A stretch of DNA of 64,000 nt, taken from the NCBI GenBank assembly GCA_003524085.1, contig DOEC01000006.1, positions 1,146 through 65,145 of the forward strand, in the 5' to 3' direction. The notes under the pieces are model-generated. The model did no database searches and was not told the origin of the DNA. It was given only the letters and a program-made list of their open reading frames with translations. Position numbers and translations under genes: made by a program. This document shows, piece after piece, positions 679-46,212 of the stretch (the first letter of the stretch is position 1; every line of letters starts with the position of its first letter). Source of the stretch: Bacillota bacterium. GTDB lineage: Bacteria; Bacillota_I; Bacilli_A; RF39; UBA660.

Positions 679-2598
679 TTAATTTAACATTAATTTTACA
701 ACCGACCCTTCTTTTACACGTTTCCCACTTTCAGGATTAGTCATTATTACAGTTTCACCACTTCCAGAATATTCTAGTTTAAAACCATTTAATAGTTGTT
801 TTGCTTCTTTTATAGTTTTTCCCCTTACATCTGGTACTGTGGTATACTTTGTCTCATACCAAAAGTATTCTCTTGGCATACCTTCAGTTGTTGATTCTAA
901 GTTGTGTAGGTTAATTATTCCGTTAAATACGTTTCTTGCAATCGGAGCTGAAGTAGAGCCACCATATTGTGTTGCGCCTTTTGCTCCATCTACTCCGATA
1001 TAAACAATATATTCTGGATCGTTAGCTGGCATAAAGCCTATAAATGACAAAATGTAATTTCCAATCATGTATCTTCCATCACTTCCAACTTTTTGTGCTG
1101 TTCCAGTTTTTCCGCCTATTCTATATCCTTCAATGTATGCATTATGTCCACTTCCATTTGCAACAACGCTTTCTAGTGCGTATTTGACTAAGTTGCTTGT
1201 TTCTTTTGTAATTAAATTTTCTTTTTTTAATGTAGGATATATTTCTTTTATGATTAGTCCAGTTTCTCTTTCACTAATGCTTTTCATTACATATGGTGTA
1301 TACATATTTCCGTCATTTATTATACTACTTACGGCTAAGACTTGCTGCATTGCCGTTACTGAGACACCTTGACCAAAACTAGTTGTCGCAAGTTCTAGTG
1401 GTCCTACTTTATCTAAGGGAAATATAATTCCTTTGCTTTCTCCATTTAGATCTATTCCAGTTTTCTTACCAAAACCAAATTTATCTATGTAGTTAAAAAG
1501 CACATCTTTCCCAAGTTTATTACCAAGAACTACAAAACCGGGGTTACAAGAGTTTTCTACTACTTCTAAAAACGTTTCTTCACCGTGACCTCCTGCTTTC
1601 CAACAATGTAAAGTACTACCTGCTACTTTTATTTTTCCTGTGTCATAGTACTTATCTTCAAATAAATTAACCTTTCCCTCATTTATGGATGCGGCTAGTG
1701 TTAAAATTTTGAATGTTGAACCGGGCTCAAAGCTACTCCAAATAGCTAAGTTTCTATTTATTACTTCTACACTATAACTCTGGTATTTCTCTGGTTCAAA
1801 ACTAGGACGACTAGCCATTGCAAGTATTTCTCCAGTTTTAGGTTTCATAACTATTCCAATTGCGCCTTCCATGTTGTACTTAACCTCGGCATTATCAAGT
1901 TCACTTTCTAACATTAGTTGTAAATCTAAATCAATTGTTAAATTTATATCTAAACCTGATACTGGACTTGCGTATACTTCAGGCACTGAAAGTTTTTTAC
2001 CTTTGCCATCACTATAATATTTAATACTTCCATCTGTACCTGTCAAGTATTTGTCATACATTAACTCTAGCCCACTTAAACCTTGATTATCTATTCCAAC
2101 ATAACCGATTACATGGCTAAGTGTTTTACCGTATGGATAATTTCTTTTAGTTTCTTTAAGTAAATATACTCCGTCATAGTTTAGTTCATTAATTTTTGAT
2201 GCGATTTCGTAACTTAAATCTCTTCCTTCTGGGTGTACTCTTTCTATTGATGTTTTTTTAGAAACGTGTTTATACATATCTTCATAGCTTACTCCAAGAA
2301 TTTCACTAATATTTTTTGCAACAGTTTCTTTATCTTTAATCTGTGCTGGAATTAATATAAGGCTAGAAGTTGTTACGTTTCCTGCTATTACTTTCCCGTT
2401 TCTATCAAGTATTCTACCACGGTCAGCTCCAACGGGTAAGTTTCTACTCCATAAACTATTAGCGAGTGTATTTAATTTTCTGTATTCTATAACTTGTATG
2501 TAAAAAACTTTAATAATGACTATTAAAAATATCGCTATTACTATTAGAAAAACCAATTTAATTCTACTATTTTGCGTATTTTGAAACATATAATTCAC
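679..2598 (-). CDS. Class B penicillin-binding protein (FtsI/SpoVD-like transpeptidase with one C-terminal PASTA domain)
   Basis: 639-aa ORF with an N-terminal TM. It has SxxK (STFK), SxN (SCN) and KTG (KTGTA) motifs. The C-terminus VPDVRGKTIKEAKQLL...VVKLMLN is PASTA-like. Confidence 0.9.
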   Translation of the reverse strand: MNYMFQNTQNSRIKLVFLIVIAIFLIVIIKVFYIQVIEYRKLNTLANSLWSRNLPVGADRGRILDRNGKVIAGNVTTSSLILIPAQIKDKETVAKNISEILGVSYEDMYKHVSKKTSIERVHPEGRDLSYEIASKINELNYDGVYLLKETKRNYPYGKTLSHVIGYVGIDNQGLSGLELMYDKYLTGTDGSIKYYSDGKGKKLSVPEVYASPVSGLDINLTIDLDLQLMLESELDNAEVKYNMEGAIGIVMKPKTGEILAMASRPSFEPEKYQSYSVEVINRNLAIWSSFEPGSTFKILTLAASINEGKVNLFEDKYYDTGKIKVAGSTLHCWKAGGHGEETFLEVVENSCNPGFVVLGNKLGKDVLFNYIDKFGFGKKTGIDLNGESKGIIFPLDKVGPLELATTSFGQGVSVTAMQQVLAVSSIINDGNMYTPYVMKSISERETGLIIKEIYPTLKKENLITKETSNLVKYALESVVANGSGHNAYIEGYRIGGKTGTAQKVGSDGRYMIGNYILSFIGFMPANDPEYIVYIGVDGAKGATQYGGSTSAPIARNVFNGIINLHNLESTTEGMPREYFWYETKYTTVPDVRGKTIKEAKQLLNGFKLEYSGSGETVIMTNPESGKRVKEGSVVKLMLN

Positions 2599-4124: not shown

Positions 4125-4640
4125 TTAGTTACATTCAAACACTTTATCACCAAACACATATACATTATCACTTTTTTTAGCAGTGTATTCTTTATCTTTA
4201 TACTTAAAAGTTATTTTCTTTCCTTTAATCTTACTAATTGTAACGTCTTTTTTTAGATTATCCATTAATGTATCATCTATTTGATAATCTAATATACATC
4301 CACCTGTTCCTGTAGTATAAAGTTCTGCATCTATTTCTCTATATTTTCTAGCTAAAACTTTGTTTAACTCTTCATTTAATTTTCCAGTAAATACTGAATT
4401 TATAGTATCCTCTATTTTTTCATAACTGTTATATGTACTATTAGCTGTTTTATACCAATTAACATCTTTTAATGTGACTTTTGAGTCTTCATAAACAGGT
4501 AACCCTACTCCTTCAGTAATATAAATTGACGCATAAGCTTTTTCTAATGAGTCATAAAACATTGTAGTTTTTTCTTCATCAGTTGTTCCGCATCCAGTTA
4601 ATAACACAAGTGATAAAATAACAATAATAATCTTTTTCAT
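4125..4640 (-). CDS. Lipoprotein of unknown function
   Basis: Signal peptide with lipobox MKKIIIVILSLVLLTGCG. 171 aa. Confidence 0.65.
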   Translation of the reverse strand: MKKIIIVILSLVLLTGCGTTDEEKTTMFYDSLEKAYASIYITEGVGLPVYEDSKVTLKDVNWYKTANSTYNSYEKIEDTINSVFTGKLNEELNKVLARKYREIDAELYTTGTGGCILDYQIDDTLMDNLKKDVTISKIKGKKITFKYKDKEYTAKKSDNVYVFGDKVFECN

Positions 4641-4698: not shown

Positions 4699-6612
4699 CT
4701 ATTTTAACAATTTTTCTATTTTTTCTAATAGTAAGTCAAAATCAAATCCACTAGTTTCTAATACTTCTCTTTCTCTATTAGAATATACATAATCATTTAA
4801 AGTTATTAAATATTTATCACTATAAACAAATTTATTCCAAATATTATCACTACTCATTTCAATAGCTACCACTTTAGCGCCTACTGGAAATAACTCTTGC
4901 TTATACTCTTTTTCATTCTTTAAATATAAGTTAACGCTTGGCATTGATACTACTCTTGTAAATAAGCCTCTGTTTTCTAATTCATCACTTATTCTTAAAG
5001 ATAATTCTACTTCATTACCTGTTGAAACTATTACACCACCAAGTCTACCTTTTTCTTTCTTAATGATGTATGCTCCTTTACTTACTTCATTGATAGAAGA
5101 ATTATCTAACATTCCTTTATATTTTTTAGTTATAATTAATGCACTTGGTATTTTTTTATTTATAATATAGTCCCAAGAACCAACTAATTCATTCACATCA
5201 GCAGATCTCATTACATTTAAATTAGGAATACTTCTTAAATCGCTTAATTCATTAACTACTTCAGTATATTTATTATTACTTGTATCTATAAAAGTATCGT
5301 TAACAAAGATATAACTTACTGATTTTTTAATTATACTAGACATTTTAAGTGAAGACTTCATGTAGCTAGAATTACTTAAAGTTGTTTCTATTACTGGTTT
5401 TAAGTTTAGTAAAGACATTCCATTTGCTATCATACCACCTGATAAATATTTAGTACCTAAATATATAGTTTTATCTTTATCAAATTCTATTTTAGTTTCA
5501 TTTTTATTATATAAATCAATATTAATCATTAACGGGCACATACTAGAAATAGCATTAAGTAAATTATTATTTGTTTCTCTTAAGTCTTCTTGCATATTTT
5601 CATCAAATCCAACTTTGATATTTTTAATATTCATTTTAAAGTTATCTTCTTCTAATAAACTTATTATTTTTTTCTTTTCTTCATTCACTTCAATAATCTT
5701 ATTATATGTACTTACCCATTCATTATAGTAAGTGTTATTTTTTTCTAAGATATTTTTAAATTCATTATATGAACTTGCTGATATGTGATATGGCACTTGT
5801 GTAATACTCATTTTTTCTTTAACTAAAGCTAAATCGTTTTCACTTATTACATACTCATGACCCTTTGGACTTGCTTGCATACTTGTACCTATTGCTATCA
5901 TTGTTTTAATTTCAATTATGCTAGGTTTACCACTTTCTTTAGCTCTTGTAATAGCTTTATCTATTAAAGTATAATCTTCTGCATTAGTTACTGTTTCAAC
6001 AAAATAGCCTAGGCTTTCTAAATATTTAAGTTTGTTTGTGTAGCTAGATGTATCTTTTTTACCATCCACTGTAGTTTCAAATGAATTATATAAAATAATT
6101 AGATTATTTAAGTTTTCTTTAGCAGCTACTTCTAAAGATTCCATTGCTACAGGACTAGAGATGCACTCATCTGTTACTAATGTATAAGTGTAGAAATTAA
6201 TTAGTTCTTTACCAAGCAACTTTTGCATGTATTTACTACCAAGTGTAACTCCTACAGCCAAAGACAACCCTTCACCATTTTTTCCAGTTGTACTTTCAAT
6301 ACCAATACTAGGGTTAAGTTCAGGATACACACTTAGTTTACCACTTCCATAATTTTTAACATCTTCTAGTGTTATGTTGTAGCCTGAATATAAAAGTATA
6401 CTATATAATAAAGGTGCAGCACCTGGTGTGGACAATATAAATCTGTCTCTATTTATCCAAGTTGGATCAGTACTTACAAAATGCATGTGTTTTGTAAATA
6501 CCGTATATATTGTCGGTGCTAGAGAAAGCGTTAGTCCAGCGTCACCTAGTCCCCTATTATAAATCATGTCTACACTCAAACTTCTTAAAGAATTAATTAA
6601 CTTAGTATCCAT
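4699..6612 (-). CDS. Transketolase-fold protein lacking canonical ThDP/catalytic residues (putative pseudoenzyme)
   Basis: 637 aa, collinear with transketolases (DRDRFILS, GIESTTG, FYTYTLV, MIANGMS, VVSMPS). The SGHPG, GDG..N, REF and DGPTHQ motifs are replaced (see findings). Confidence 0.7.
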   Translation of the reverse strand: MDTKLINSLRSLSVDMIYNRGLGDAGLTLSLAPTIYTVFTKHMHFVSTDPTWINRDRFILSTPGAAPLLYSILLYSGYNITLEDVKNYGSGKLSVYPELNPSIGIESTTGKNGEGLSLAVGVTLGSKYMQKLLGKELINFYTYTLVTDECISSPVAMESLEVAAKENLNNLIILYNSFETTVDGKKDTSSYTNKLKYLESLGYFVETVTNAEDYTLIDKAITRAKESGKPSIIEIKTMIAIGTSMQASPKGHEYVISENDLALVKEKMSITQVPYHISASSYNEFKNILEKNNTYYNEWVSTYNKIIEVNEEKKKIISLLEEDNFKMNIKNIKVGFDENMQEDLRETNNNLLNAISSMCPLMINIDLYNKNETKIEFDKDKTIYLGTKYLSGGMIANGMSLLNLKPVIETTLSNSSYMKSSLKMSSIIKKSVSYIFVNDTFIDTSNNKYTEVVNELSDLRSIPNLNVMRSADVNELVGSWDYIINKKIPSALIITKKYKGMLDNSSINEVSKGAYIIKKEKGRLGGVIVSTGNEVELSLRISDELENRGLFTRVVSMPSVNLYLKNEKEYKQELFPVGAKVVAIEMSSDNIWNKFVYSDKYLITLNDYVYSNREREVLETSGFDFDLLLEKIEKLLK

Positions 6613-6672
6613 ATTTTCACCTTCTTATTATAATTTAATTATAACACATGAGAAAATACTAAGCAACTATTT

Positions 6673-6828
6673 TTATGCGTAGTAAACTTCTACCTCTATT
6701 GGAGTTTTCACATTACTAGCATTTACATCTTCTATCTTTTTAGTAAGCATAAATGCAAGTATCGCTATAATAAAATAGAATAACAATATACCTTTCATAC
6801 TATTAAATAATTTTTCAACTTTTTCCAT
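6673..6828 (-). CDS. Unannotated 51-aa single-pass membrane protein, divergent from lexA
   Basis: Hand translation gives MEKVEKLFNSMKGILLFYFIIAILAFMLTKKIEDVNASNVKTPIEVEVYYA*. An AGGAGAG RBS lies 8 nt upstream, and the gene has its own consensus promoter. It is below the length shown in the ORF track. Confidence 0.55.
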   Translation of the reverse strand: MEKVEKLFNSMKGILLFYFIIAILAFMLTKKIEDVNASNVKTPIEVEVYYA

Positions 6829-6852: not shown

Positions 6853-6929
6853 ATTTTATAACATATATTAGTTTGTGTCAATATTAAATCGCAAAAATGT
6901 TTGACAAATTTACATTTGTGTGTTAAACT
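6853..6929. promoter_or_regulatory. Divergent promoter pair (small gene / lexA), each carrying a 16-bp ACA-N10-TGT palindrome
   Basis: Minus strand: TTGACA (6876-6881), 17 nt, TAAAAT (6853-6858). Plus strand: TTGACA (6901-6906), 17 nt, TAAACT (6924-6929). Palindromes are ACATATATTAGTTTGT (6861-6876) and ACAAATTTACATTTGT (6904-6919). Confidence 0.6.
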
Positions 6930-6952: not shown

Positions 6953-7570
6953 ATGGAAAAATTAACTAAAAAACAAGAAGAAGTCTTGACAGTTATTAAA
7001 AAATACATAGCTGAACACGGCTATGCTCCAAGTGTAAGAGAAGTTTGTGAACTTATGAATTTAAGTTCAACTGCAACTGTATTCGTACATATGAGACATC
7101 TTATGAAGAAAGGATATTTAAAACAAACAGATAATAAATTTAGAACACTAGAAGTTTTAGTACCAAACGAATACTTAGAAAAAAATGAAGACGTTGTAAA
7201 CGTTCCACTACTTGGAAAAGTTACATGTGGTAACCCTATTGAAGCTATTGAGTTTCCTGATGAATACATAGCTTTACCAGCATTCATGATACCTAAGAAA
7301 GAAGAAATATTTACATTAAAAACTGAAGGAATGAGCATGAAGAACGTTGGAATATATGATGGAGATATAGTTATAGTAAAAAGACAAAAGAATGCAAAAA
7401 ATGGAGATTATGTTGTAGCACTTGATGAAAATGGATTTACTACATTAAAGACATTTTATAAAGAAAATGGATATTTTAGACTACAACCAGAAAACGAAAC
7501 TATGGACCCTATTATACTTGATAAAGTTGAGATACTTGGAATTGCAATAGGTCTATATAGAAAGTTTTAG
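6953..7570 (+). CDS. lexA: LexA repressor
   Basis: ORF track 6920..7570, with the start moved to MEKLTKKQEEVL (RBS AAAGGA). N-terminal wHTH (GYAPSVREVCELMNLSSTATV). C-terminal S24 peptidase with GMSM and VVKRQ (Ser/Lys dyad context). Confidence 0.9.
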   Translation: MEKLTKKQEEVLTVIKKYIAEHGYAPSVREVCELMNLSSTATVFVHMRHLMKKGYLKQTDNKFRTLEVLVPNEYLEKNEDVVNVPLLGKVTCGNPIEAIEFPDEYIALPAFMIPKKEEIFTLKTEGMSMKNVGIYDGDIVIVKRQKNAKNGDYVVALDENGFTTLKTFYKENGYFRLQPENETMDPIILDKVEILGIAIGLYRKF

Positions 7571-7616: not shown

Positions 7617-8156
7617 CTAGCATTTGCTAATTTGAACTAAATCTACTTCTACTGGTGTTTCTTGTCCAAATAAATCTATTAAAACATTTAACTTTTCGTT
7701 TTCTAAATCAATACTTTGAACTTTACCAAACATTCCATTAAATGGTCCATCAACAATTTTAACTGAATCGCCTTCTTGTAAGTCTGTTTCAATGTCAAGT
7801 CTACTAAGTCCTTCACTAGCTAGAATTTTATCTATTTCTTGTGGAGATAATGGAATTGGTTTAGCACCCTTACCACTACTACCGATAAATCCAGTAACTC
7901 CTGGAGTATTTCTAACTGCATACCAAGCTTCGTCACTCATAATCATTTCAACAAGTACATAACCTGGAAACATCTTCTTTGTTTTTTCTTTCTTAATGCC
8001 ATCTTTAATTTCAACTTCTTTAGTTTCTGGAACAATAACTCTAAAAATATTATTTCCCATACCCATTGAGTCTTTTCTCATAAGTAAGTTTTCTTTTACT
8101 TTACTTTCATGGCCTGAATAAGTATTAACAACATACCATAACTTTTGATTTTCCAT
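7617..8156 (-). CDS. nusG: Transcription termination/antitermination factor NusG
   Basis: 179 aa. It starts WYVVNTYSGHE, has the NGN domain, and a C-terminal KOW (GDSVKIVDGPFNGMFGKV). Confidence 0.95.
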   Translation of the reverse strand: MENQKLWYVVNTYSGHESKVKENLLMRKDSMGMGNNIFRVIVPETKEVEIKDGIKKEKTKKMFPGYVLVEMIMSDEAWYAVRNTPGVTGFIGSSGKGAKPIPLSPQEIDKILASEGLSRLDIETDLQEGDSVKIVDGPFNGMFGKVQSIDLENEKLNVLIDLFGQETPVEVDLVQISKC

Positions 8157-8159
8157 AAT

Positions 8160-8339
8160 TTATCCCACGATTCCTTTCAAGAAAGTAAATAATACATCTA
8201 GTAAGTAAAAATATCCACCAAAGAACACCATTAAAGTAAGAACCATTACTGAATACTTAAATAAATCTTTACCACTAGGCCACCTTACCATCTTTTTTTC
8301 TTTACTAACACCTTTAAAAAATGCCTTGATTTTTTTCAT
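8160..8339 (-). CDS. secE: Preprotein translocase subunit SecE
   Basis: This is the ORF track frame, with the likely start at MKKIKAFFKGVSKEKKMVRWPS... after a GGAGGG RBS. Single C-terminal TM, located immediately upstream of nusG. Confidence 0.8.
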   Translation of the reverse strand: MKKIKAFFKGVSKEKKMVRWPSGKDLFKYSVMVLTLMVFFGGYFYLLDVLFTFLKGIVG

Positions 8340-8349
8340 AAGTCCCTCC

Positions 8350-8373
8350 ATAAAAAAAACACTTACGTGTTTC
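8350..8373 (-). terminator. Weak hairpin plus T-run between sigE and secE
   Basis: On the minus strand: AAACAC-GTAA-GTGTTT followed by T8, ending just before the secE RBS. The stem is only 6 bp. Confidence 0.35.
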
Positions 8374-8418
8374 AGTAATTTAAATATACTACAAATTAAA
8401 GAAAAATACAAGTGTTTT

Positions 8419-9105
8419 TTAAACTTTCATTAAACTTTTTAGCCTTTTTATAGCTTTTTTTTCAATTCTTGAGATATAGCTTTGACTTATACCTAACATA
8501 TCAGCTACTTCTTTTTGAGTATATTCTTTTTGATTATATAAGCCATACCTAAGTGTTAGTATTTCTTTATCTCGTTTATTTAAGTTTTCTATTTCTTTAA
8601 TTAGAAGTTCTTTATCAACAATACTTTCATATTCCTTTTCTACTATATCATCAGGTGTTCCTAAAACATCTTCTAAATGTAGTTCGTTACCATCTTGATC
8701 TAAATTAATAGAGTCTTCAAATGAAATTTCAACTTTCCTTCTTTTATTCTTTCTTAAAAACATAAGTATTTCATTATCAATACATCTACTAGCGTATGTT
8801 GCTAGTTTTATGTTCTTGTCTAGTTTATATGTCTTAACTCCTTTGATAAGCCCGATTGTACCAATGCTAACTAAATCTTCTAAGTCATACATTGTATTAT
8901 CATACTTTTTAGCAAGAAAAACTACAAGTCTTAAGTTGTGCTCGATTAGTTTGTTTCTTGCATGCATATCTCCATTATTACTCTTAATGACTAGCTCTTC
9001 TTCCATGCTTTTTTCTAAAGGTGGTGGAAGTATATCGGTACTTCCTAAGTAAAAAACTTTTTCTTTATCCTTAAACAAACTACTTATAAAATCAAATATT
9101 TTCAT
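8419..9105 (-). CDS. sigE: Sporulation sigma factor SigE (pro-sigma-E)
   Basis: 228 aa. YLGSTDILPPPLEKSMEEEL, HARNKLIEHNLRLVVFLAKKY, SIGTIGLIKGV, KLATYASRCIDNEILMFLR and ISQSYISRIEKKA closely follow the B. subtilis SigE pattern. It lies directly after spoIIGA. Confidence 0.9.
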   Translation of the reverse strand: MKIFDFISSLFKDKEKVFYLGSTDILPPPLEKSMEEELVIKSNNGDMHARNKLIEHNLRLVVFLAKKYDNTMYDLEDLVSIGTIGLIKGVKTYKLDKNIKLATYASRCIDNEILMFLRKNKRRKVEISFEDSINLDQDGNELHLEDVLGTPDDIVEKEYESIVDKELLIKEIENLNKRDKEILTLRYGLYNQKEYTQKEVADMLGISQSYISRIEKKAIKRLKSLMKV

Positions 9106-9106
9106 G

Positions 9107-9895
9107 TTATCCCTCCATTAATAAATAATTTAATAAAACTTCTACTTTGTTAGACTTTAACTTATCTTTTACTACACCTACTACTATATTCTTTTTTACT
9201 CCAATACCTTCTATAAATATTTTCTTAACTTTGTAACACCTCAACAATCCACCCTCATTAATACTTTGGTATGGTATATAGAAAAATGGAGTGTTTTTAA
9301 TTATACTTTCAAACTTTTTAGAATTAGTTATGATAACTGGTCTATTTGTATATGGATCTATTAAAGTGTTTCCTGTGTCCATGTAGCCTATGAGTTCTAG
9401 TTTACTTTCATTAATATAGATATCCACTTTATAATATAAACTATTAATTTCACGAATAACTTTCATTTGTTTATAATAGATATACATTATAATTGGAGTA
9501 CATATTAATATAAAGATGTAATTAATACTTATGCCTTTATGAAAAAATACCATACCAATATTCTTATAACTAAAGCTTACGTTTAAATAATATATAAACC
9601 CTCCTAAGATTATGCTTATTAAATAAAAATATACCAAGTTAGTTATAAAATACTTAAAGTCAGAATAACCAAATGTTATGAGTATTATCAAAACTGATAA
9701 AAATACCTTAAGTAAAAAGAGTGTTAAAGTAGTTAAGGGCACGAATAAAACAATGATAGTTATACTTCCTAGTAAAGAACCCAATACTATTTTTTTAATA
9801 GAAGTTCTTCTTTTAAGGACAATACTTGTAGTAAGTAAAAGTATAAAATCAAAAAAGAAGTTTAAAAATATTATTAAGTCAACATACACTTTCAT
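9107..9895 (-). CDS. spoIIGA: Sigma-E processing peptidase SpoIIGA
   Basis: 262 aa with five N-terminal TM segments and the aspartic protease motif MDTGNTLIDPYTNRPVII. Confidence 0.9.
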   Translation of the reverse strand: MKVYVDLIIFLNFFFDFILLLTTSIVLKRRTSIKKIVLGSLLGSITIIVLFVPLTTLTLFLLKVFLSVLIILITFGYSDFKYFITNLVYFYLISIILGGFIYYLNVSFSYKNIGMVFFHKGISINYIFILICTPIIMYIYYKQMKVIREINSLYYKVDIYINESKLELIGYMDTGNTLIDPYTNRPVIITNSKKFESIIKNTPFFYIPYQSINEGGLLRCYKVKKIFIEGIGVKKNIVVGVVKDKLKSNKVEVLLNYLLMEG

Positions 9896-9954
9896 GTAAC
9901 CACCAATACAAGTATAATAAAAACGACAAGCATATTTTGTCGTTTTATAGTTTT

Positions 9955-10761
9955 TTATTTTCTTTTTAATCCTTTAGAATATAATTCGTTATATGACCCA
10001 TCCATTAAAGCTATTTGCATGTCTTCATAAATAGACTTTAATTCTTCTAAAGCAATATCTTTAAACATAGTCTGTCCATATATTTCTTCATTAACAGGCT
10101 CTAAAATATTTAAGTGACTCTTTAAAGTACTAGCTATTAATCTAAAGTTAAAGTAATTAAACTTACCTTTTTCATTGATAAACTTATGATAGAAATCAAT
10201 TAATGGACTAATAGATACTAATGTAGGATCATTATATTTTAGTGAGTCTCTTAAACATCTAAGTAAATCAAACTCATCTATACTGTCTCTTGAAGATGAC
10301 ATTATTTCTTTGCTTTTAATTAAGCTTTCAATATATTTTATGTCTCTTGAGTTTTCTCTAAGAGTTTTTTCTAACATTCCTCGGTTTAACAAATCCTTGT
10401 CTTTCTTATAAAATATTGGAAGTGTTCTAACATCTTTTTTAGCACGATACATAATTACTAATTTATGATTATTTCTTAAGTCAACGTCATAGTTAGACTT
10501 TAGTTCAAAGTCATTATTAAATCTAGTAGTAAAATTATCAATTTCTTCTAGTGTTGAAGGCATGGTTACTTTTAAATATTTAGTAAATTCTGCATAGCCT
10601 TCACTATAATGAAAGACTAAATTTCCAAGAAAATACTTGTTTTTAGCATCATCATTATATTTAGCAATTAACCTTTTAATTTCAGAAGTACTATACTTTT
10701 TAAAACTTCTAGTTTCAACCCCAGCCTTAATTCCAATACTATATCTATTAACTTTACCCAT
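9955..10761 (-). CDS. Hypothetical protein (268 aa)
   Basis: ORF track only, and I recognise no motif. It has a strong promoter and an AAGGGG RBS. Confidence 0.5.
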   Translation of the reverse strand: MGKVNRYSIGIKAGVETRSFKKYSTSEIKRLIAKYNDDAKNKYFLGNLVFHYSEGYAEFTKYLKVTMPSTLEEIDNFTTRFNNDFELKSNYDVDLRNNHKLVIMYRAKKDVRTLPIFYKKDKDLLNRGMLEKTLRENSRDIKYIESLIKSKEIMSSSRDSIDEFDLLRCLRDSLKYNDPTLVSISPLIDFYHKFINEKGKFNYFNFRLIASTLKSHLNILEPVNEEIYGQTMFKDIALEELKSIYEDMQIALMDGSYNELYSKGLKRK

Positions 10762-10943: not shown

Positions 10944-11852
10944 CTAACTAATTTGCACAGTTTTATTTATTTTAAATTCTACTATAGTTACTTGATTATC
11001 TTTTACGTAATGAGCTTCAAACTTATTTACTGACTTTGTTATAATTATTCCAATAGTACTATTTTGAGTTATATTTTTTAAGTGTTCGTCAATATAGTTC
11101 ATATACGTTTTTATTTGACCATAGTCACTTTTCTTATATTCTCTTGATTTTATCTCTACTACACAATATCTACTTTCAACCACATTATAAAATAGATAGT
11201 CTATATAATTCTTTTTGTCTCCAATGTTAAGTTTATATTCTCTTCCGACGTAAAAATATCCACCGCCTAATTGTTTCATAAAACTATCTAAGTTTTCATA
11301 AATAATTTCTTGTAATATTTTTTCAGTATAAACTTCATAACTTTTATTAGGTGTTAACACTATTGGACTGGGGACACTTTGAATTAAAGAAAGTTCTTCT
11401 TTATTTAAAAGACTTTCTTTTGCTTCAGTTGAGAGTCTACCATACTCATTACTCTTTATTCTTTCAGCTAATGCTCTTTTACTTAAATTATCTCGTTTAG
11501 TAATATGAATATAATACTTAATTTCTTTGATATCTCTTAGTGATAATAAAATCTTGTAATGACTCCACGTCAATTGTCGCTCCAGTGGAGCGACTTTTTG
11601 AATTAATAAATAAAATTGTTGTATCTTATATAAATCTTTTTCCTTATATCCACTTCCAAATTCCTTAGTTAAAATACTTGCATATTTTTTTACTATTCCT
11701 TCTCCATAGTGTTTACCTGCTTCTACTAGTTCCCTTCCTATATTATAATTCATTGTAAGTTTTACATTATTTATCTGATAATTCTTAGCTACTACTTTAG
11801 CATTTCCATTTATTATTTCAGTCTTTATATTACTTAAATATTCGTCTATCAT
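10944..11852 (-). CDS. DUF1016/YhcG-family PD-(D/E)XK nuclease-domain protein, array copy 1
   Basis: 302 aa. YhcG-N pattern (NYNIGRELVEAGKHYGEGI, EFGSGY, LTWSHYKILL). C-terminal IDYLFYN...VVEIK nuclease core and GQIKTYMNYID. Confidence 0.8.
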   Translation of the reverse strand: MIDEYLSNIKTEIINGNAKVVAKNYQINNVKLTMNYNIGRELVEAGKHYGEGIVKKYASILTKEFGSGYKEKDLYKIQQFYLLIQKVAPLERQLTWSHYKILLSLRDIKEIKYYIHITKRDNLSKRALAERIKSNEYGRLSTEAKESLLNKEELSLIQSVPSPIVLTPNKSYEVYTEKILQEIIYENLDSFMKQLGGGYFYVGREYKLNIGDKKNYIDYLFYNVVESRYCVVEIKSREYKKSDYGQIKTYMNYIDEHLKNITQNSTIGIIITKSVNKFEAHYVKDNQVTIVEFKINKTVQIS

Positions 11853-11864
11853 AAATTTTCCCTC

Positions 11865-12773
11865 CTAACTAATTTGCACAGTTTTGTTTATTTTAAATTC
11901 TACTATAGTTACTTGATTATCTTTTACATAATGTGCTTCAAACTTGTTTACTGATTTTGTTATAATTATTCCAATAGTATTATTTTGAGTTATATTTTTT
12001 AAGTGTTCGTCAATGTAGTTCATATACGTTTTTATTTGACCATAATCGCTTTTTCTATATTCTCTTGCTTTTATTTCAACTACACAATATCTACTGTCAA
12101 CTACATTATAAAATAGATAATCTATATAATTCTTTTTGTCTCCAATGTTAAGTTTATATTCCCTACCAATAAAAGCGTAGCCTCCACCAAGTTGATGCAT
12201 AAAATCTTCTATATTTTCAAAGATTATTTCTTGTAATATTTTTTCAGTATAAACTTTATAACTTTTATTAGATGTCAACACTATTGGACTTGGGACACTT
12301 TGAATTAAAGAAAGTTCTTCTTTATTTAAAAGACTTTCTTTTGTTCCATCTGAAAGTCTATCATACTCATCACTTCTTATTATTTCAGCTAATTTTCTAT
12401 AACTTAAATTATCTCTTATAGAAATATTAGTATAATAATTGATTTTATTGATATCTTTTAAAGGTAAAAGTAATCTTATGTGTTCCCAAGTCAATTGGTG
12501 CGGCAATGCCGCACCTTTTTCAAAAAGAACATAAAATTGACGCATTCTCTTTAAATTAGATACAGAATATCCACTTCCAAATTCCTTAGTTAAAATACTT
12601 GCATATTTTTTTACTATTCCTTCTCCATAGTGTTTACCTGCTTCTACTAGTTTCCTTCCTATATTATAATTCATTGTAAGTTTTACATTATTTATCTGAT
12701 AATTCTTAGCTGCTACTTTAGCATTTCCATTTATTATTTCAGTCTTTATATTACTTAAATATTCGTCTATCAT
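11865..12773 (-). CDS. DUF1016/YhcG-family PD-(D/E)XK nuclease-domain protein, array copy 2
   Basis: 302 aa paralog. A 12-nt gap with TAG-GAGGG stop/RBS overlap separates it from its neighbours. Confidence 0.8.
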   Translation of the reverse strand: MIDEYLSNIKTEIINGNAKVAAKNYQINNVKLTMNYNIGRKLVEAGKHYGEGIVKKYASILTKEFGSGYSVSNLKRMRQFYVLFEKGAALPHQLTWEHIRLLLPLKDINKINYYTNISIRDNLSYRKLAEIIRSDEYDRLSDGTKESLLNKEELSLIQSVPSPIVLTSNKSYKVYTEKILQEIIFENIEDFMHQLGGGYAFIGREYKLNIGDKKNYIDYLFYNVVDSRYCVVEIKAREYRKSDYGQIKTYMNYIDEHLKNITQNNTIGIIITKSVNKFEAHYVKDNQVTIVEFKINKTVQIS

Positions 12774-12785
12774 AAATTTTCCCTC

Positions 12786-13694
12786 CTAACTAATTTGCAC
12801 AGTTTTGTTTATTTTAAATCCTACTATAGTTACTTGATTATCTTTTACATAATGAGCTTCAAACTTATTTACTGATTTTGTTATAATTATTCCAATAGTA
12901 CTATTTTGAGTTATAGTTTTCAAGTGTTCGTCAATGTAGTTCATATACGTTTTTATTTGGCCATAATCGCTTTTCTTATACTCTCTTACTTTTATTTCAA
13001 CTACACAAAAACAGTTCATTTTGTAATTGTATAAAAGATAGTCTATATAATTCTTTTTATCTCCAATATTGAGTTTATATTCTCTACCAATAAAAGAGTA
13101 TTCTCCACCAAGTTGATGCATAAAATCTTCTATATTTTCAAATATTATTTCTTGTAATATCTTCTCATTATAAAATTCATAGCTTTTATTTGGTGTCAAT
13201 ACTATCGGACTGGGTATGCTTTGAATTATTGAAAGCTCTTCTTTGTTTAAAATACCCTCTTTCGTTTCAGTTGAAAGTCTGCCATACTCATTACTTCTTA
13301 TTCTTTCAGCCAATGCTCTTTTGCTTAAATTATCTCGTTTAGTAATACTAATATAATACTTGATTTCTTCTACATTTTTTAATGGTAAAAGTAATTTATA
13401 ATGAGACCAAGTCAAAAGTTGCCCCACTGGAGCAACTTTTTGACTTAAATCATAAAATTGCTTCATTCTTGTTAATTCTGTAAAAGTATATCCCTTACCA
13501 AATTCTACCGTTAATTCCTTTGCATATTTTTTTACTATTCCTTCTCCATAATGTTTACCAGCTTCTGCTAGTTCCTTACCAATATTATAGTTCATTGTAA
13601 GTTTTACATTGTTTATCTGATAATTTTTAGCTATTACTTTAGCATTACCATTTATTATTTCATTCTTTATATTTTCTAAATAATTGTCTATCAT
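12786..13694 (-). CDS. DUF1016/YhcG-family PD-(D/E)XK nuclease-domain protein, array copy 3 (first in the operon)
   Basis: 302 aa paralog. Same termini as the other copies, with divergent blocks at residues ~60-100 and around the nuclease core (IDYLLYNYKMNCFCVVEIK). Confidence 0.8.
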   Translation of the reverse strand: MIDNYLENIKNEIINGNAKVIAKNYQINNVKLTMNYNIGKELAEAGKHYGEGIVKKYAKELTVEFGKGYTFTELTRMKQFYDLSQKVAPVGQLLTWSHYKLLLPLKNVEEIKYYISITKRDNLSKRALAERIRSNEYGRLSTETKEGILNKEELSIIQSIPSPIVLTPNKSYEFYNEKILQEIIFENIEDFMHQLGGEYSFIGREYKLNIGDKKNYIDYLLYNYKMNCFCVVEIKVREYKKSDYGQIKTYMNYIDEHLKTITQNSTIGIIITKSVNKFEAHYVKDNQVTIVGFKINKTVQIS

Positions 13695-13925: not shown

Positions 13926-15368
13926 TTAAACAATTGAGAATAACATCAATACTAAAATGTTTACTATTGCAATTGTTATAACTACTTTTAATGCCCATTT
14001 GAACCAAGTTGAATAGTCTACTTTAGCAAGAGCAAGTCCTCCCATTATTGCTCCACAAGTTGGAGTTATTAAGTTTACTAATCCATTTGCACTTACAATA
14101 GTCATAGCCGCTACTTCAGTTGAATAACCTAAGCTTGCAGCAAGTGGTCCAGTTATTGGAGTTGAAAGTGTTGCAAGTCCACTACTTGATGGTACTAAGA
14201 ATGATAACACTATATGTAGTAAGTAGTTTAGTGGAACGAATACTAATTCTGGTAGTTTACTTAAATGTTCAGTTGCATTATAAATAATGTAATTGTCTAA
14301 GTAAGTTTGTTTCATTAATACAGAAGCTCCTCTTGCTACTGCTATTACTAAGATAACACCTATCATATCTTTTGTTCCATCAATAAATGTATCTACAAAC
14401 TCTTTTTCTTTGTAACCATTGATTAAAGATATTACTATACTCATTAAGAAGAACCAAAGTGCAGACTCGTAGAAGTACCAGTTACCTAAACTAGAGCCTG
14501 TAAGCCATCCAGTAAATCCATCAAAGAAAGTTATGTCAAATTCTCCCCATGGAATAAATCCTATAATCATTATTAAGAATGTTAAAGCAAAAACACATAA
14601 AGTTATTTTTTGTTTTGTAGTTAAAACTTCTTTTTGCTTTGATTTTTCCTCAAATTTACCAAATTCTTTTTCAGCTTCTTCTTGCTCTCTTAAAGAAAGT
14701 ATAGTTGAACCTTTATCTTTTTTAACTTTACTTGCATAAGCTAACACAAACAATGTTGATATTAGGTAAGCTAATAACCATAAGATTATGCCTATAAATA
14801 ATACAGTTCCTTGATTATATTCTACACCAGCTGCTCTTAAAGCAGATAATACAGCTCCTGTTGCAAATGGGTTAACTGTTGAACCAAGAACACCAGTACC
14901 AGCACCTAATAAAACTACTGCTGCACCTACAAGTGGGTCCATTCCTGCGGCAAACATCGTAGCTGCTAGAAGTACGTAGAAGCCAACTGTTTCTTCAAGC
15001 ATTCCATATGTTGTACCACAAATTGAGAAGATAAACATTAATATTGGTATTAACCATAATTCTTTACCTTTTAATTTTTGTACTAAAACTTTGATACCTG
15101 TTTCTAAAGCCTTAGTTTTGTCTATTATTTTAAGGAATCCTCCTAAAATAAGTACGAATATTGCAACATCTACAGCATTTTCAAATCCCAATATTGGTGC
15201 TAGTAAGATTTGGCTTAATTTAGCCCCTACTGTACCACTTCCATTTACTATTTCTTCACCAACGAATTTAGCATCTGGTAGTAAATGTGAAAGAATTCCA
15301 AGTACTACTATAACTATCATTATAATAGTATATGCTGATAACATGCTTCTATTCTTTTTCTTTGTCAT
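13926..15368 (-). CDS. YfcC/DcuC-type anaerobic carrier family membrane protein (putative arginine/ornithine exchanger of the ADI operon)
   Basis: 480 aa and polytopic. It is the last gene of the arcA-arcB-arcC operon, 1-nt gap after arcC. Confidence 0.65.
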   Translation of the reverse strand: MTKKKNRSMLSAYTIIMIVIVVLGILSHLLPDAKFVGEEIVNGSGTVGAKLSQILLAPILGFENAVDVAIFVLILGGFLKIIDKTKALETGIKVLVQKLKGKELWLIPILMFIFSICGTTYGMLEETVGFYVLLAATMFAAGMDPLVGAAVVLLGAGTGVLGSTVNPFATGAVLSALRAAGVEYNQGTVLFIGIILWLLAYLISTLFVLAYASKVKKDKGSTILSLREQEEAEKEFGKFEEKSKQKEVLTTKQKITLCVFALTFLIMIIGFIPWGEFDITFFDGFTGWLTGSSLGNWYFYESALWFFLMSIVISLINGYKEKEFVDTFIDGTKDMIGVILVIAVARGASVLMKQTYLDNYIIYNATEHLSKLPELVFVPLNYLLHIVLSFLVPSSSGLATLSTPITGPLAASLGYSTEVAAMTIVSANGLVNLITPTCGAIMGGLALAKVDYSTWFKWALKVVITIAIVNILVLMLFSIV

Positions 15369-15369
15369 A

Positions 15370-16305
15370 TTATTTTCCTCCTTTTATGACTGTACCATTT
15401 TTATATTCTAATGCGTCACTAGCGCATTCTAGCGATGTAATTATTGCAGTTTTATTTCTGTTTTCTACAAAATTTATACATGCTTCTATTTTAGGCAGCA
15501 TACTTCCAGGAGCAAACTGGTTATCACTTATATACTTTCTTGCTTCTTCTACTGTGATAGTATCTAACCCAGTCATATTTTCTTTATTGTAGTTTAAGTA
15601 TACTTTATCAACAGCAGTTAATATAAGTAACACATCAGCATCTACTTCTTTAGCAAGTAAACTAGCTGACTTATCTTTATCAATTACTGCATCTACTCCT
15701 TTTAGAAGATTATTTTCCATTATAACTGGAACTCCTCCACCTCCAGCACATATAACAATTACATCATCTTCAACAAGTTTTTTTATAACTTTGTCATTTA
15801 GTATTTTTTTAGGTATAGGAGATGGTACTACTCTTCTATATCCACGGCCTGCGTCTTCTTTAAAAATGTAACCTTTTTCACTTTCTATTACACTGGCTTC
15901 TTCTTTAGTGTAAAACATTCCAATAGGTTTAGTAGGATTTTTAAAACATCCATCATTTTTATCAACTAAGACCTCTGTTATTAAGGCTACTATAGATTTG
16001 TCAATGTCTCTTTTGTTTAGTTCATTCATTATTGACTGTTCTATATGGTAACCAATATAACCTTCACTCATACTACCACACTCTGCAAATGGCATTGATG
16101 GAGTAGCAGCACTTCCATTACTAGCATACTCCATTGCAAGAGAGATTTGCCCAACTTGCGGTCCATTTCCATGTGTAAGTATTACTTTGTTACCTTTTTC
16201 TATAAGGTCCACTATTACTTTAGAAACACCCTCTAGAATAGATAATTGTTCACTAGGAGTCTTCCCTAGAGCATTTCCTCCTAGAGCTATAACTATTTTA
16301 CTCAT
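15370..16305 (-). CDS. arcC: Carbamate kinase
   Basis: 311 aa. It has IVIALGGNAL, THGNGPQVG and ICAGGGGVPV motifs. Confidence 0.9.
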   Translation of the reverse strand: MSKIVIALGGNALGKTPSEQLSILEGVSKVIVDLIEKGNKVILTHGNGPQVGQISLAMEYASNGSAATPSMPFAECGSMSEGYIGYHIEQSIMNELNKRDIDKSIVALITEVLVDKNDGCFKNPTKPIGMFYTKEEASVIESEKGYIFKEDAGRGYRRVVPSPIPKKILNDKVIKKLVEDDVIVICAGGGGVPVIMENNLLKGVDAVIDKDKSASLLAKEVDADVLLILTAVDKVYLNYNKENMTGLDTITVEEARKYISDNQFAPGSMLPKIEACINFVENRNKTAIITSLECASDALEYKNGTVIKGGK

Positions 16306-17297
16306 TACTCTTCCCTCATTGTTAGATATATTACAGCTTTAATTGTATGTAATCTATTTTCAGCTTCATCAAATACTTTTGATTTTGGACTATTAAATAC
16401 TTCGTCAGTTACTTCCATTTCTTTTAGACCAAATTTTTCATATATCTCTTTTCCAATTGTTGTATTTAAATCATGAAATGATGGTAAGCAGTGTAAAAAT
16501 ATTGCGTTTTCGCTTGCATTTGACATAACACTCATGTTTACTTGATATGGACTAAGTAATTTAATACGACTAGCCCATACTTCATCTGCTTCTCCCATTG
16601 AAACCCATACGTCAGTATATATTACGTCAGCACTCTTAGTAGCAACATTTACGTCTTCTTCTAAAGTTATAGTACACCCATTAGTACTAGCAATTTCCTT
16701 ACAAGTATTAACTAACTCTTCTTGTGGCCATAATTCACGTGGAGCACATGCTACAAAGTTTATTCCCATTTTAGCACATACTACCATAAGTGAATTTGCA
16801 ACGTTGTTTCTAGCATCTCCCATAAATACTAACTTTAAGCCCTTTAAATATCCAAAGTTTTCTTCAATAGTCATAATATCTGCAAGCATTTGTGTTGGAT
16901 GAAATTCTGTTGTAAGTCCGTTCCATACAGGTACTCCAGCATTTTTGGCTAACTCTTCTACTATTGTTTGACTGTATCCACGATATTCTATTCCATCATA
17001 CATTCTACCTAATACTTTAGCAGTATCAGCAATACTTTCTTTTTTACCCATTTGACTAGCATTAGGATCTAAATACGTCACTCCCATACCAAGGTCAAGT
17101 GCAGCAACTTCAAAAGCACATCTTGTTCTAGTTGAAGTTTTTTCAAATAAAAGTACAATGTTTTTATTTGGTAAATATTTATGTTCAATATGTAATTTCT
17201 TTTTTTCTTTAAAATCTTTAGATATGTCTAGTAAAAACCTTATTTCTTCAGGTGTATAATCTAATAATTTTAAGAAATGTCTTCCTGTTAAATCCAT
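16305..17297 (-). CDS. arcB: Ornithine carbamoyltransferase (catabolic context)
   Basis: 330 aa. It has [17 protein letters not shown] and HCLPS motifs and lies between arcA and arcC. Confidence 0.9.
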
Positions 17298-18541
17298 TAT
17301 ATATCCTCCCTAACTAGTGGCATACTCATACATCTTGGGCCACCTCTTCCACGTGATAATTCAGCACTTGGCATTTCAAGAACTTTTATTCCGTGTTCTC
17401 TTAGTATATTGTTAGTCATGTTGTTTCTATCGTATACTACTACTACACCAGGCGCTATACAAAGAGTGTTTGTTCCGTCATTCCATTGTTCTCTTTCACT
17501 AGATATTTTTTCTCCTCCAGCACATGGAATAAGTGTAATTTTCTTTCCAAGATATTTTTCTAATATTTCTTCTAAACTACCTTCTACTTTTTTAACATTT
17601 AAGTCTTCAAATGTAGTTGGATCATCTCCTTCAGTAATTTCGTAAACTTCTAGAGTGTTCATTATTCCTGGATGGTATGTAAACTTATCATAATCTATTT
17701 GTGTAAATACAGTGTCTAAATGCATAAATGCACGACTTTCTGGTATTTTGAAAGATAGTACTGTTTCTACTTCACAAGTAGGTTCTTTAAATAAGTTTTT
17801 AGCAAGTTCATCAATTGCGGCAGGCTCTGTTCTTTGTGAGATACCTACAGCAATAACTTTATTACTTATGTTTAATACGTCTCCACCTTCAATGTGGTAA
17901 GGTAGGTTTCTACTATAGTACCTTTTTACTTTACCCTTGAAGTCAGGATGATACTTGAATATAAAGTCAGCATATATAGTTTCTCTATTTCTAGTAACTG
18001 AATACATTCTATTTAGTATTGCCCCGTTACCACAGCTTGCGAATGGGTCTCTTGTAAAGTAGAGGTTTGGTATTGGGTCAGCTAAGAAGTCACTCTCATC
18101 ACTTACAAAGTCAACTAAGCTTTTTTCTACTTCTCTTTTTCTTAATGGTATTTCTTCTATTTTTATACCACTCATTGTTTTTAATACTAATTCTTTTTTA
18201 TCAGTAAAGCTATGTAAGTAGTCATATACTAGAGTTCTATATTTAGGAGTAGTTATTCCAGCTTCATAGATAAATTCTTTTAGAAATTCGTCTAGTATTT
18301 CTTCACTAATACTTAATACTTCACTAACTAGGTCTTCTAGATATACTACTTCTATACCATTTTCTTTTAGAATTCTTGCGAATTCGTCGTGTTCAGCTTG
18401 CGCGACTGGTAAGAAAGGTATATCATCAAATAAAAGTCTTCCTAATGTATCTGGAGTTAGATTAAGCAGTTCATTTCCAGGTCTATGAAGAAGTACTTTC
18501 TTAAGTGGACCTATTTCACTTTTAACATTAATTCCTTGCAT
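17297..18541 (-). CDS. arcA: Arginine deiminase
   Basis: 414 aa. It has the [17 protein letters not shown] start, FTRD, HLDT and C-terminal [10 protein letters not shown] (catalytic Cys). Confidence 0.9.
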
Positions 18542-27926: not shown

Positions 27927-29083
27927 ACTATGAAAATATTTTAAGTAAGTACTCTACTCCACTTTTTATCTATGACTGTGATAAGTTAGAACAAAGAGTT
28001 AATTACTTAAAAAATATGTTAGATACTGATTTATGTTATGCAATTAAAGCTAACTCATTTGTTATAAAAGAAATTGAACCATTAGTATCAAGAATTGAAA
28101 TATGTTCTTATGGAGAATACATGATATGTAAAGATAATGGTGTTAAAAATGATAAGATGGTATTAAGTGGGGTTAATAAAAACTATGATGAGTTTGAAAA
28201 AATTATAAAAGAAGAAAATAATATATTAAGATACACCATTGAAAGTATTACTCAGTTTAATATGTTAAAAGAGTTATCTAGTAAATATAAGAAGAATATT
28301 AATATACTACCTAGAATTACAAGTGGTAACCAGTTTGGAATTACAAAAGAAGAACTATATTATATAATAGAGAACTTAACAGAATTTATGACTTTAACAG
28401 GTATAGAATTCTTTAGTGGAACACAAAAACACAGTATTAAGAGAATTGTTAATGAGTTTACTCTAGTTAATGAGATATTTGATTATATAGAAAACACTTA
28501 TAAACTAACTGATTTAGAGTTAGAGTATGGTCCTGGGTTACCTGTTTACTATTTTGAAGAAGAGAGTTTTAATGAAGAAGAATTTTTAAATGAAGTTAAA
28601 AACAATATTCATACATTCTTTAAAGGTAGAAAAGTTATTCTTGAAATTGGAAGAAGTTTAGTAGCAAATTGTGGTGAATATATTACTAAAGTTGTTGATT
28701 TAAAAGAAAATAAGACTGGAAAATACGCTATTATTGATGGTGGAATTAATCATTTAGTATATTATGGTGGCACGATGGGAATGATGAGACCAAAGTTTGA
28801 AATACTAAACAAAAGTAATACCAAAGAAAATATATACAACATATTTGGGTCTCTTTGCACTATTAACGATATAATTGTTAAGAATGTAAGCTTGCCTGAG
28901 TTAGAAATAAATGATACATTTGTGTTTAAGAATACTGGAGCTTATTCAGTAACTGAAGGAATTAACCTATTTTTAAGTAGAGATATGCCTAAAGTGTTAC
29001 TGCTAAAAAATAAGAATGTGTTATTAGTAAGGGACAACATTAACACATATAAGCTAAATAGTCCTAATTATGGAGGTAAATAA
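27923..29083 (+). CDS. Type III PLP-dependent decarboxylase (Orn/DAP/Arg decarboxylase family)
   Basis: 386 aa. YAIKANS (PLP Lys), EIGRSLVA (EPGR-like), IDGGINH, GSLCTINDI and NTGAYSV. It overlaps the ligase gene by 4 nt. Confidence 0.8.
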   Translation: MNYENILSKYSTPLFIYDCDKLEQRVNYLKNMLDTDLCYAIKANSFVIKEIEPLVSRIEICSYGEYMICKDNGVKNDKMVLSGVNKNYDEFEKIIKEENNILRYTIESITQFNMLKELSSKYKKNINILPRITSGNQFGITKEELYYIIENLTEFMTLTGIEFFSGTQKHSIKRIVNEFTLVNEIFDYIENTYKLTDLELEYGPGLPVYYFEEESFNEEEFLNEVKNNIHTFFKGRKVILEIGRSLVANCGEYITKVVDLKENKTGKYAIIDGGINHLVYYGGTMGMMRPKFEILNKSNTKENIYNIFGSLCTINDIIVKNVSLPELEINDTFVFKNTGAYSVTEGINLFLSRDMPKVLLLKNKNVLLVRDNINTYKLNSPNYGGK

Positions 29084-29084
29084 A

Positions 29085-29315: not shown

Positions 29316-29317
29316 TT

Positions 29318-30883: not shown

Positions 30884-30894
30884 GAGGTAATGTT

Positions 30895-34627: not shown

Positions 34628-34657
34628 TTGACTATACAAACAAAGACGTGTTATACT
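34628..34657 (+). promoter_or_regulatory. Promoter of the Y-family polymerase operon with an embedded ACAAAC-N4-ACGTGT element
   Basis: TTGACT (34628-34633), 18 nt, TATACT (34652-34657). ACAAACAAAGACGTGT lies at 34636-34651 in the spacer. Confidence 0.5.
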
Positions 34658-34684
34658 TAATGCGAACAAAGGATGGTGTTTGTC

Positions 34685-46207: not shown

Positions 46208-46212
46208 ATAAA

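Follow-up and report, generated by a model that had tools for sequence, protein, structure and literature searches.

The transketolase-like gene and its homologs

We analysed a stretch of 64,000 nucleotides (the window) from a Bacillota bacterium (GTDB lineage Bacillota_I, Bacilli_A, RF39, UBA660; GenBank assembly GCA_003524085.1, contig DOEC01000006.1, positions 1,146 to 65,145), in which a transketolase-like (tkt-like) open reading frame (ORF) lies at 4699-6612 between a lipoprotein gene and a small membrane ORF that is flanked by a divergent lexA. The ORF encodes 637 amino acids (aa) plus a stop codon, and 15 of 20 cofactor, catalytic and substrate residues of transketolase (Tkt) are replaced in its product. 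It runs on the minus strand, a detail absent from an earlier note that had been made on this DNA from its letters alone. That note had described the ORF as collinear with transketolase over three domains, and this is borne out by profile and sequence searches. The NCBIfam model TIGR00232 covers the protein end to end (model residues 4-636), and the best match in the Protein Data Bank (PDB) by phmmer is 8r3r, the Streptococcus pneumoniae Tkt (2.3e-85, residues 5-633 aligned). Additionally, Pfam recognises Transketolase_N (2e-57) and Transketolase_C_1 (1.6e-21), while the Transket_pyr match, at 24 bits, lies under the 27-bit Pfam gathering cut-off.

The three-domain PP, Pyr and C architecture is present, with a weak Pyr domain. 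The PP domain, the N-terminal and formerly diphosphate-binding part, occupies aa 1-315 (5668-6612, minus strand, as are all coordinates of the protein) according to the Transketolase_N match and residue mapping, and is followed by the Pyr-domain remnant at aa 346-505 (5098-5577), placed by residue mapping, and by the C-terminal transketolase domain at aa 506-637 (4702-5097). The peripheral PP helices and the interdomain linker make up aa 211-345 (5578-5982), a segment that stands out in the profiles of identity and of omega, the ratio of nonsynonymous to synonymous substitution rates (dN/dS). The TIGR00232 score of the tkt-like protein is 401.1 bits against an equivalog cut-off of 682.25, so that it fails the model, whereas two canonical sister proteins (P0018 and P0034) pass at 711.5 and 708.3 bits.

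Homologs form a series that starts with a cluster of 428 members at 90% identity or more and continues with relatives at 89%, 73% and 54-57% identity. We refer to the relatives down to 54% identity (P0001-P0017), all of which are degenerate at key residues, as group A, and to those at 39-49% identity, most of which carry the full canonical residue set, as group B; the nearest active-looking orthologs share 47-49% identity with the tkt-like protein. Clustering of proteins at 50% identity leaves one representative for the whole of group A (P0010, 1094 bits), and the match that follows it scores 587 bits. In a neighbour-joining (NJ) tree, group A forms a single clade within the canonical enzymes, and its root-to-tip distance is ~1.05 versus ~0.6 for its sisters. 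Group A is probably a narrow clade, at the level of a genus or family.

Active-site residues

Residues were mapped by HMMER alignment, by MAFFT alignments with 64-120 homologs and with an Escherichia coli TktA numbering ruler, in which 20 of 20 literature-numbered residues fall at the correct index. The fifteen replacements, given as the TktA residue followed by the residue of the tkt-like protein, are H26 to D24, H66 to G64, H100 to Y96, G156 to E149, D183 to N176, N185 to F178 and I187 to T180 in the N-terminal part, and S385 to E372, E411 to Y389, F434 to T411, F437 to N414, H461 to N438, D469 to N446, H473 to T450 and R520 to K496 further on. Unchanged are G114 (G110), D155 (D148), H261 (H252), R358 (R345) and Y440 (Y417). 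The equivalent of Y440 varies across the degenerate clade, and clade-wide conservation among the 20 key residues is limited to the equivalents of D155, H261 and R358.

The losses comprise the cofactor-activating Glu, four of the five catalytic His, the N185 metal ligand, the aromatics of the pyrimidine pocket and most ligands of the substrate phosphate. Glu411 activates the cofactor in canonical transketolases; across the degenerate clade its position is Y, I or P. The histidines H26, H66, H100, H261 and H473 read D, G, Y, H and T, with H261 alone kept, and H461 has become N. In the PP domain the motifs GHPG, GHGS, HPE, GDG and YDxN read GDAG, PGAA, YPE, TDE and YNSF. In the Pyr domain the equivalents of E411, F434/F437, H461, D469 and H473 are all lost and variable within the clade, and those of H66, S385 and R520 vary within it as well.

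The substitutions that the earlier note had reported at His26, His66, His100, Glu411 and His473 were reproduced in the HMMER, MAFFT and ruler alignments. A rigorous alignment, named in advance as something that could overturn the reading, does not bring back the His, Glu and GDG..N residues. The reported loss of the cofactor/metal motif stands by half: the Gly of GDG and the Asn are gone, and the first Asp is retained (TDEC). The motif for thiamine diphosphate (ThDP) and divalent metal, GDG-X(25-30)-N, is not found, as the protein reads TDE...YNSFE at this place, with D155 kept, G156 changed to E and N185 changed to F.

Constraint along the protein and predicted fold

We compared the alignment columns of eight non-redundant group-A sequences with those of 42 canonical sequences, and found 46 columns that are at least 90% conserved in canonical Tkt and unconstrained in group A. 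These comprise the H66 loop (63-67), the TTGPLGQG diphosphate loop (109-113), the helix after GDG (151-164), the GGSADL loop (364-373), the GVRE loop (382-392), the pyrimidine pocket (409-431) and the DGPTH loop (444-454). A further 65 columns are invariant in group A and canonical Tkt alike, and these form the structural core. Eleven columns have switched to a new invariant residue in group A, a clade with 54-60% identity, and include H to D24, P to A25, D to N176 and N to F178 in the old diphosphate/metal site; the invariant replacement residues of the degenerate clade are D24, A25, N176, F178 and T180.

Sliding-window identity over aa 361-450 is 0.37-0.49 within group A versus 0.66-0.79 within group B, whereas overall identity is similar in both groups (0.60 and 0.64, respectively) and the two do not differ in conservation of the C-terminal domain. 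It is specifically the cofactor and substrate loops that have lost constraint, which the rest of the protein keeps. The segment aa 211-345 behaves in the opposite way, being the most constrained in the degenerate clade and the least conserved in canonical sisters, with an identity of 0.57-0.76 in group A versus 0.42-0.65 in group B and an omega of 0.02-0.10 versus 0.08-0.19 for other regions in the same comparisons. We treat this pattern as a lead and do not claim a general new interface at aa 211-345, as in the canonical cluster, in most of the other degenerate clusters of sufficient size and among population variants of the tkt-like protein the segment is as variable as the rest of the protein or more so.

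An AlphaFold2 model built from a 64-sequence alignment has a mean predicted local distance difference test score (pLDDT) of 92.5 and a predicted template modelling score (pTM) of 0.93, with confidence dipping only at aa 331-340 and 441-450. The top Foldseek matches of the model in the PDB are all transketolases, with template modelling (TM) scores of 0.93-0.96, a root-mean-square deviation of ~2 Å and 22-28% identity. According to the model, the tkt-like protein retains the three-domain transketolase fold, in agreement with the view of the earlier note that fold-defining blocks are kept.

Selection and intactness of the gene

Ortholog DNA was compared at four levels of identity, namely 96% (L001), 89% (L081), 73% (L083) and 56% (L084). 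The closest, L001, belongs to an 'uncultured Bacilli bacterium' metagenome-assembled genome from the Hadza gut and is the sole degenerate-clade locus among the contig matches listed. By the Nei-Gojobori method, in comparisons that are not saturated, dN/dS of the tkt-like gene is 0.15 (dS 0.11) against the 96% ortholog, 0.08 (dS 0.68) against the 89% ortholog and 0.16 (dS 1.15) against the 73% ortholog. For the neighbouring lexA, nusG, sigma factor, spoIIGA, penicillin-binding protein (PBP) and lipoprotein genes it is 0.02-0.14 in the two closest comparisons. Omega is at most 0.23 in each of four sub-regions of the tkt-like gene, including the former active-site half of Pyr.

Among the 428 members of the cluster at 90% identity or more, the 15 listed are each 637 aa long, with 18 variable positions and no stops, and full-length ORFs occur throughout the degenerate clade, at divergence down to 54% identity. 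The tkt-like gene is under purifying selection and is not decaying. This agrees with the earlier note, which had called the ORF intact and had proposed dN/dS across orthologs as a check; the values of 0.08-0.16 indicate purifying selection, the listed variants keep the full 637 aa, the clade extends to 54% identity, and orthologs carry none of the frameshifts that the note had considered as a sign of plain decay.

Degenerate transketolases in other lineages

A group-A profile was searched against 1.84 billion representatives of clusters at 50% identity, and the nearest 149 (P0153-P0301) were analysed. At least 2 of 12 key residues are replaced, and in most cases 7-12 of 12, in 33 of the 149 representatives, all of full length; since the profile search favours degenerate, AT-rich sequences, this proportion (22%) is no estimate of frequency. 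With the active-site columns removed, an NJ tree places the degenerate representatives in at least 10 clades of uncultured Bacilli, each beside canonical sisters, a count that long-branch attraction may blur. The degenerate proteins tested all fail the TIGR00232 cut-off (389-593 bits), whereas canonical sisters pass it, and those degenerate representatives that have an NCBI name are called 'hypothetical protein [Bacilli bacterium]'. In the three degenerate lineages whose loci were looked up (P0112, P0183 and P0178), the tkt-like gene lies just downstream of a divergent lexA.

One of these, P0112, is an independent and abundant lineage (127 contigs) in which the five catalytic His are all replaced (Y, C, F, Y, Y). 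As E411 and N185 are still present, this lineage may have retained the ability to bind ThDP. Its locus is found at 8001-9995 and 7352-7864 of L087, and also in L012, L018, L059 and L024, and its divergent lexA homolog encodes 170 aa only, lacking the Peptidase_S24 domain.

Gene order and expression signals

The lexA gene (6953-7570, plus strand; LexA_DNA_bind and Peptidase_S24 domains) is divergent from a 51-aa single-pass membrane ORF (6673-6828, minus strand) and from the tkt-like gene, and a 171-aa lipoprotein gene (4125-4640, minus strand) lies 58 nt downstream of the latter. In the degenerate loci at 89%, 73% and 56% identity the order is likewise divergent lexA, a membrane ORF of 50-51 aa, the tkt-like gene and a lipoprotein of 171-180 aa, and in the first of these (L081) a spoVD-type PBP and mraY come after the lipoprotein. 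The same gene order is found in canonical group-B loci L085 (that of P0018) and L086 (that of P0034), and a partly degenerate locus (P0039, L088) shares the order of lexA, small ORF, tkt and lipoprotein. Small ORF and lipoprotein are homologous between groups A and B at 45-50% identity, being as diverged as Tkt itself. Downstream of tkt, the lipoprotein is present in both degenerate and canonical sister lineages, at 46-97% identity. Furthermore, a divergent lexA lies ~140-650 bp upstream of tkt in ~25 of 80 related GTDB loci, irrespective of whether Tkt is canonical or degenerate.

Bacillus subtilis has the order lexA-yneA-yneB-ynzC-tkt, so the linkage of lexA and tkt would be ancestral in Bacilli. 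Its ynzC is BSU17880 (PMC3814617). As the tkt-like gene occupies the same slot as the canonical Tkt of its sisters, it is by position orthologous to the housekeeping tkt of Bacilli and no obvious paralog. We found no second tkt in the 64-kb window by tblastn, and none was seen in ~50 kb flanks of related loci.

A promoter-like site and ribosome-binding site of the tkt-like gene lie at 6618-6654 (minus strand). The promoter reads TTCTCA-16-TATAAT by scan and TTGCTT-17-TATAAT, preceded by TG, by eye, and GAAGGTG stands immediately 5' of the ATG as ribosome-binding site. An equivalent TGnTATAAT promoter precedes tkt in degenerate and canonical sister loci, and terminator prediction gave none between the small ORF, the tkt-like gene and the lipoprotein gene. 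The 51-aa ORF is conserved between lexA and the tkt-like gene and ends in a C-terminal ..YYA that is common to group A and B loci. Pfam returned no significant match for it; judged by where it lies and how short it is, it may be a YneA/SosA-type SOS-induced division inhibitor. Its promoter (6853-6881, minus strand; TTGACA-17-TAAAAT, 11/12) is the best match of the region, and the spacer holds a conserved ACAAAC-N4-ATATGT element (6861-6876).

A perfect 16-bp palindrome, ACAAATTTACATTTGT, at 6904-6919 overlaps a lexA promoter-like site (6901-6929, plus strand; TTGACA-17-TAAACT). A related ACAAAC-N4-A..TGT element (~34629-34644) lies in the promoter spacer of dinB (34673-35929). The palindrome and the related elements may represent a variant LexA operator. 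An exact copy of the classical Firmicute LexA (Cheo) box, GAAC-N4-GTTC, was found nowhere in the window, and with three mismatches allowed matches occur no more often than by chance; without such a box, SOS control of the operon is something that we infer from position.

Other features of the window

Three tandem YhcG/DUF1016 PDDEXK-nuclease paralogs of 302 aa (10944-13694, minus strand) are mosaic, with 99% nucleotide identity at their ends and 66-74% in internal blocks, and their syntenic place in L081 is taken by three tandem phage-integrase genes. A complete arginine deiminase operon (13926-18541, minus strand) comprises arcA, arcB, arcC and a DcuC/YfcC-type carrier, assigned by eye and through Pfam for the L081 homologs, and fits a streamlined fermentative lifestyle. 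A dlt-like cluster, also assigned by eye (26430-31818, plus strand), has the order DltA-like ligase, a decarboxylase-like ORF dependent on pyridoxal phosphate (27923-29083), DltC-like carrier (~29085-29315), MBOAT (DltB-like) and DltD-like, the decarboxylase-like ORF being an unusual extra gene.

Additionally, there are 12 tRNA genes in ~1.1 kb (46131-47224, minus strand) and a single tRNA-Ala (39311-39387, plus strand), and an Rfam scan of the window returned tRNAs only, with no rRNA. Sporulation genes are represented by spoIIGA (Peptidase_U4) with an adjacent sigma factor (8419-9895, minus strand) and by a SpoVD-type PBP (679-2598, minus strand), which indicates a spore-forming member of the Bacillota at ~27% GC and not a Mollicute.

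Discussion

We consider it probable, from comparison of sequences, that the tkt-like protein is a folded pseudoenzyme that is kept by purifying selection and would be unable to bind ThDP/Mg2+ or to catalyse ketol transfer. The earlier note had proposed a maintained pseudoenzyme or a repurposed scaffold, and the residue losses, dN/dS, the predicted fold and the depth of the clade support it. In such a course of events, the ancestral housekeeping tkt of a low-GC, spore-forming, uncultured gut Bacilli lineage would have lost cofactor binding and catalysis, and the changes H26D, D183N, N185F and I187T in the old diphosphate pocket may stabilise a cofactor-free fold. The selected function would then be non-catalytic, consisting in binding or scaffolding through surfaces outside the old active site, and might already have been a moonlighting activity of the ancestral enzyme. 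The gene would be expressed from the conserved sigma-A-type promoter in front of it, to which read-through from the lexA-divergent promoter of the small ORF might add.

Several observations weigh against a maintained pseudoenzyme with a non-catalytic role. The non-catalytic function itself is one that we purely infer, and the extra constraint on aa 211-345 is seen within this clade at intermediate divergence and is absent from most other degenerate clusters, from the canonical cluster and from population variants. The tkt-like protein evolves faster than its neighbours (89% versus 95-99% identity in the same genome pair), which fits a constraint that is weaker than theirs yet clearly present. 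Furthermore, a contig of the same species (L091, Logan SRR6128093) carries an in-frame deletion of 429 nt in the tkt-like gene, bounded by TGAAGT microhomologies and with normal flanking genes. It removes aa ~306-449, that is, the linker and most of the degenerate Pyr domain (~5266-5694 of the window), and from this one allele part of the protein may be dispensable. The high confidence of the AlphaFold2 model may partly come from the canonical homologs in the alignment. Finally, D148, H252 and R345 are invariant or nearly so in the degenerate clade, and the new invariant polar residues D24, N176, E179 and T180 line the old pocket, so binding of another ligand or metal is possible.

A second canonical tkt, xenologous or paralogous and either full-length or split into N and C parts, may lie elsewhere in the genome, carry the pentose-phosphate flux and have freed the lexA-linked copy to lose catalysis and be repurposed, which we regard as possible though unlikely. 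Many Bacillota have tkt genes that are split or duplicated, and PDB entry 6yak is a split-chain Tkt. Losing the sole Tkt cuts the non-oxidative pentose phosphate pathway (PPP) and would be easier to tolerate with a substitute, and recurrent degeneration could reflect repeated replacement. However, neither the tblastn search of the window nor the ~50 kb flanks of related loci yielded such a gene, and it is the degenerate gene that sits in the ancestral slot. A back-up tkt would alter the account of how the tkt-like gene arose and would leave the reading as a pseudoenzyme untouched.

It is improbable, in our judgement, that the PP pocket has been repurposed to bind another small molecule or a metal, making the protein a ThDP-independent enzyme or a metabolite sensor. 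The invariants of such a remodelled pocket would be D24, D148, the acidic residues 149/150, N176, F178, E179, T180, H252 and R345; the eleven switched columns, four of them in the old diphosphate/metal site, and the retained equivalents of D155, H261 and R358 speak for it. Nevertheless, the Pyr half of the site drifts freely, as its identity of 0.37-0.49 versus 0.66-0.79 in canonical sisters indicates, and the variation at the equivalents of H66, S385, D469, H473 and R520 leaves no complete conserved pocket; F178, which has taken the position of the metal-binding Asn, resembles a residue that fills the pocket.

Plain decay, in which a recently inactivated gene drifts towards a pseudogene and its ORF is intact by luck, is very hard to credit: the fast evolution of the protein relative to its neighbours, the deletion allele and a genome that looks metabolically streamlined (arginine deiminase pathway) would suit it, but dN/dS is 0.08-0.16, ORFs of full length are retained throughout the clade, down to 54% identity, as well as in ten or more further degenerate clades, and at 27% GC a stop is expected about every 12 codons in a random frame, as estimated from base composition. 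Equally implausible is a still working transketolase with unusual residues, for although the overall predicted fold and three-domain architecture are intact and a modelling study has argued for human TKTL1, despite its deletion, as a genuine transketolase (PMC6334435), the Glu411 equivalent is Y, I or P and variable in the clade, N185 is lost along with four catalytic His and the aromatics of the pyrimidine pocket, and the score is far under the TIGR00232 equivalog cut-off.

The pseudoenzyme reading places the tkt-like protein beside several known systems. With canonical Tkt/TktA (EC 2.2.1.1; TIGR00232; PDB 8r3r, 8r3s, 3m49, 2r5n) it shares architecture, length class and the lexA-adjacent slot, whereas its constraint profile is inverted, with the active-site loops free. 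With pseudoenzymes in general it shares a kept fold, lost catalytic residues and purifying selection; most of those described are paralogs of an active enzyme, whereas here the ancestral locus itself is affected, recurring in at least 10 lineages. Human TKTL1, the nearest analogue, is marked by a deletion of 38 residues and exists side by side with active TKT, of which it is a paralog. The tkt-like protein, in contrast, is collinear without such a deletion and is a positional ortholog, and its losses, among them the catalytic Glu, are far more extensive. The likeness to TKTL1 (and TKTL2) is that of a transketolase homolog with cofactor-site residues lost; TKTL1 lacks conserved cofactor-site residues, and its catalytic competence is disputed (PMC6334435; PMC12525540).

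E. coli TktA is reported to bind the repressor MarR, as cited in the Discussion of PMC3905653 (its reference 54), which is a precedent for a selectable protein-binding role of a bacterial Tkt independent of catalysis; here, the gene is persistently linked to that of a winged-helix repressor, lexA. TktA is catalytically active, however, and the link of the tkt-like gene to LexA is positional only. A regulator-binding role of the tkt-like protein is conceivable by analogy, given the lexA linkage and the TktA-MarR precedent. In the literature we found no description of a bacterial pseudo-transketolase, and nothing specific on Tkt moonlighting in Bacillus or on a link between tkt and lexA, yneA or sosA; TKTL1 and the TktA-MarR case were the only related reports to emerge. 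Pseudoenzymes are already known as a class, and what is notable here is that the ancestral tkt locus is affected and that the loss is recurrent.

Transketolase is a universal enzyme of central metabolism and a drug target. The repeated retention of the ancestral tkt after loss of cofactor binding suggests a non-catalytic job of the Tkt scaffold in Bacilli. As a rather doubtful extension of this, Bacilli Tkt might have an ancestral, selectable non-catalytic function, such as binding a regulator or a component of the lexA/SOS/cell-division locus. If true, this second function would explain the full-length, selected survival of the gene after independent loss of catalysis in at least 10 genome-reduced gut Bacilli lineages, and the degenerate proteins would be natural pointers to a hidden role of Tkt. 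In automated metabolic models, these abundant, uncultured gut bacteria may be wrongly credited with the non-oxidative PPP where the protein is called transketolase, while more degenerate homologs are currently named 'hypothetical protein'. Natural dead variants of this kind would be usable as separation-of-function alleles.

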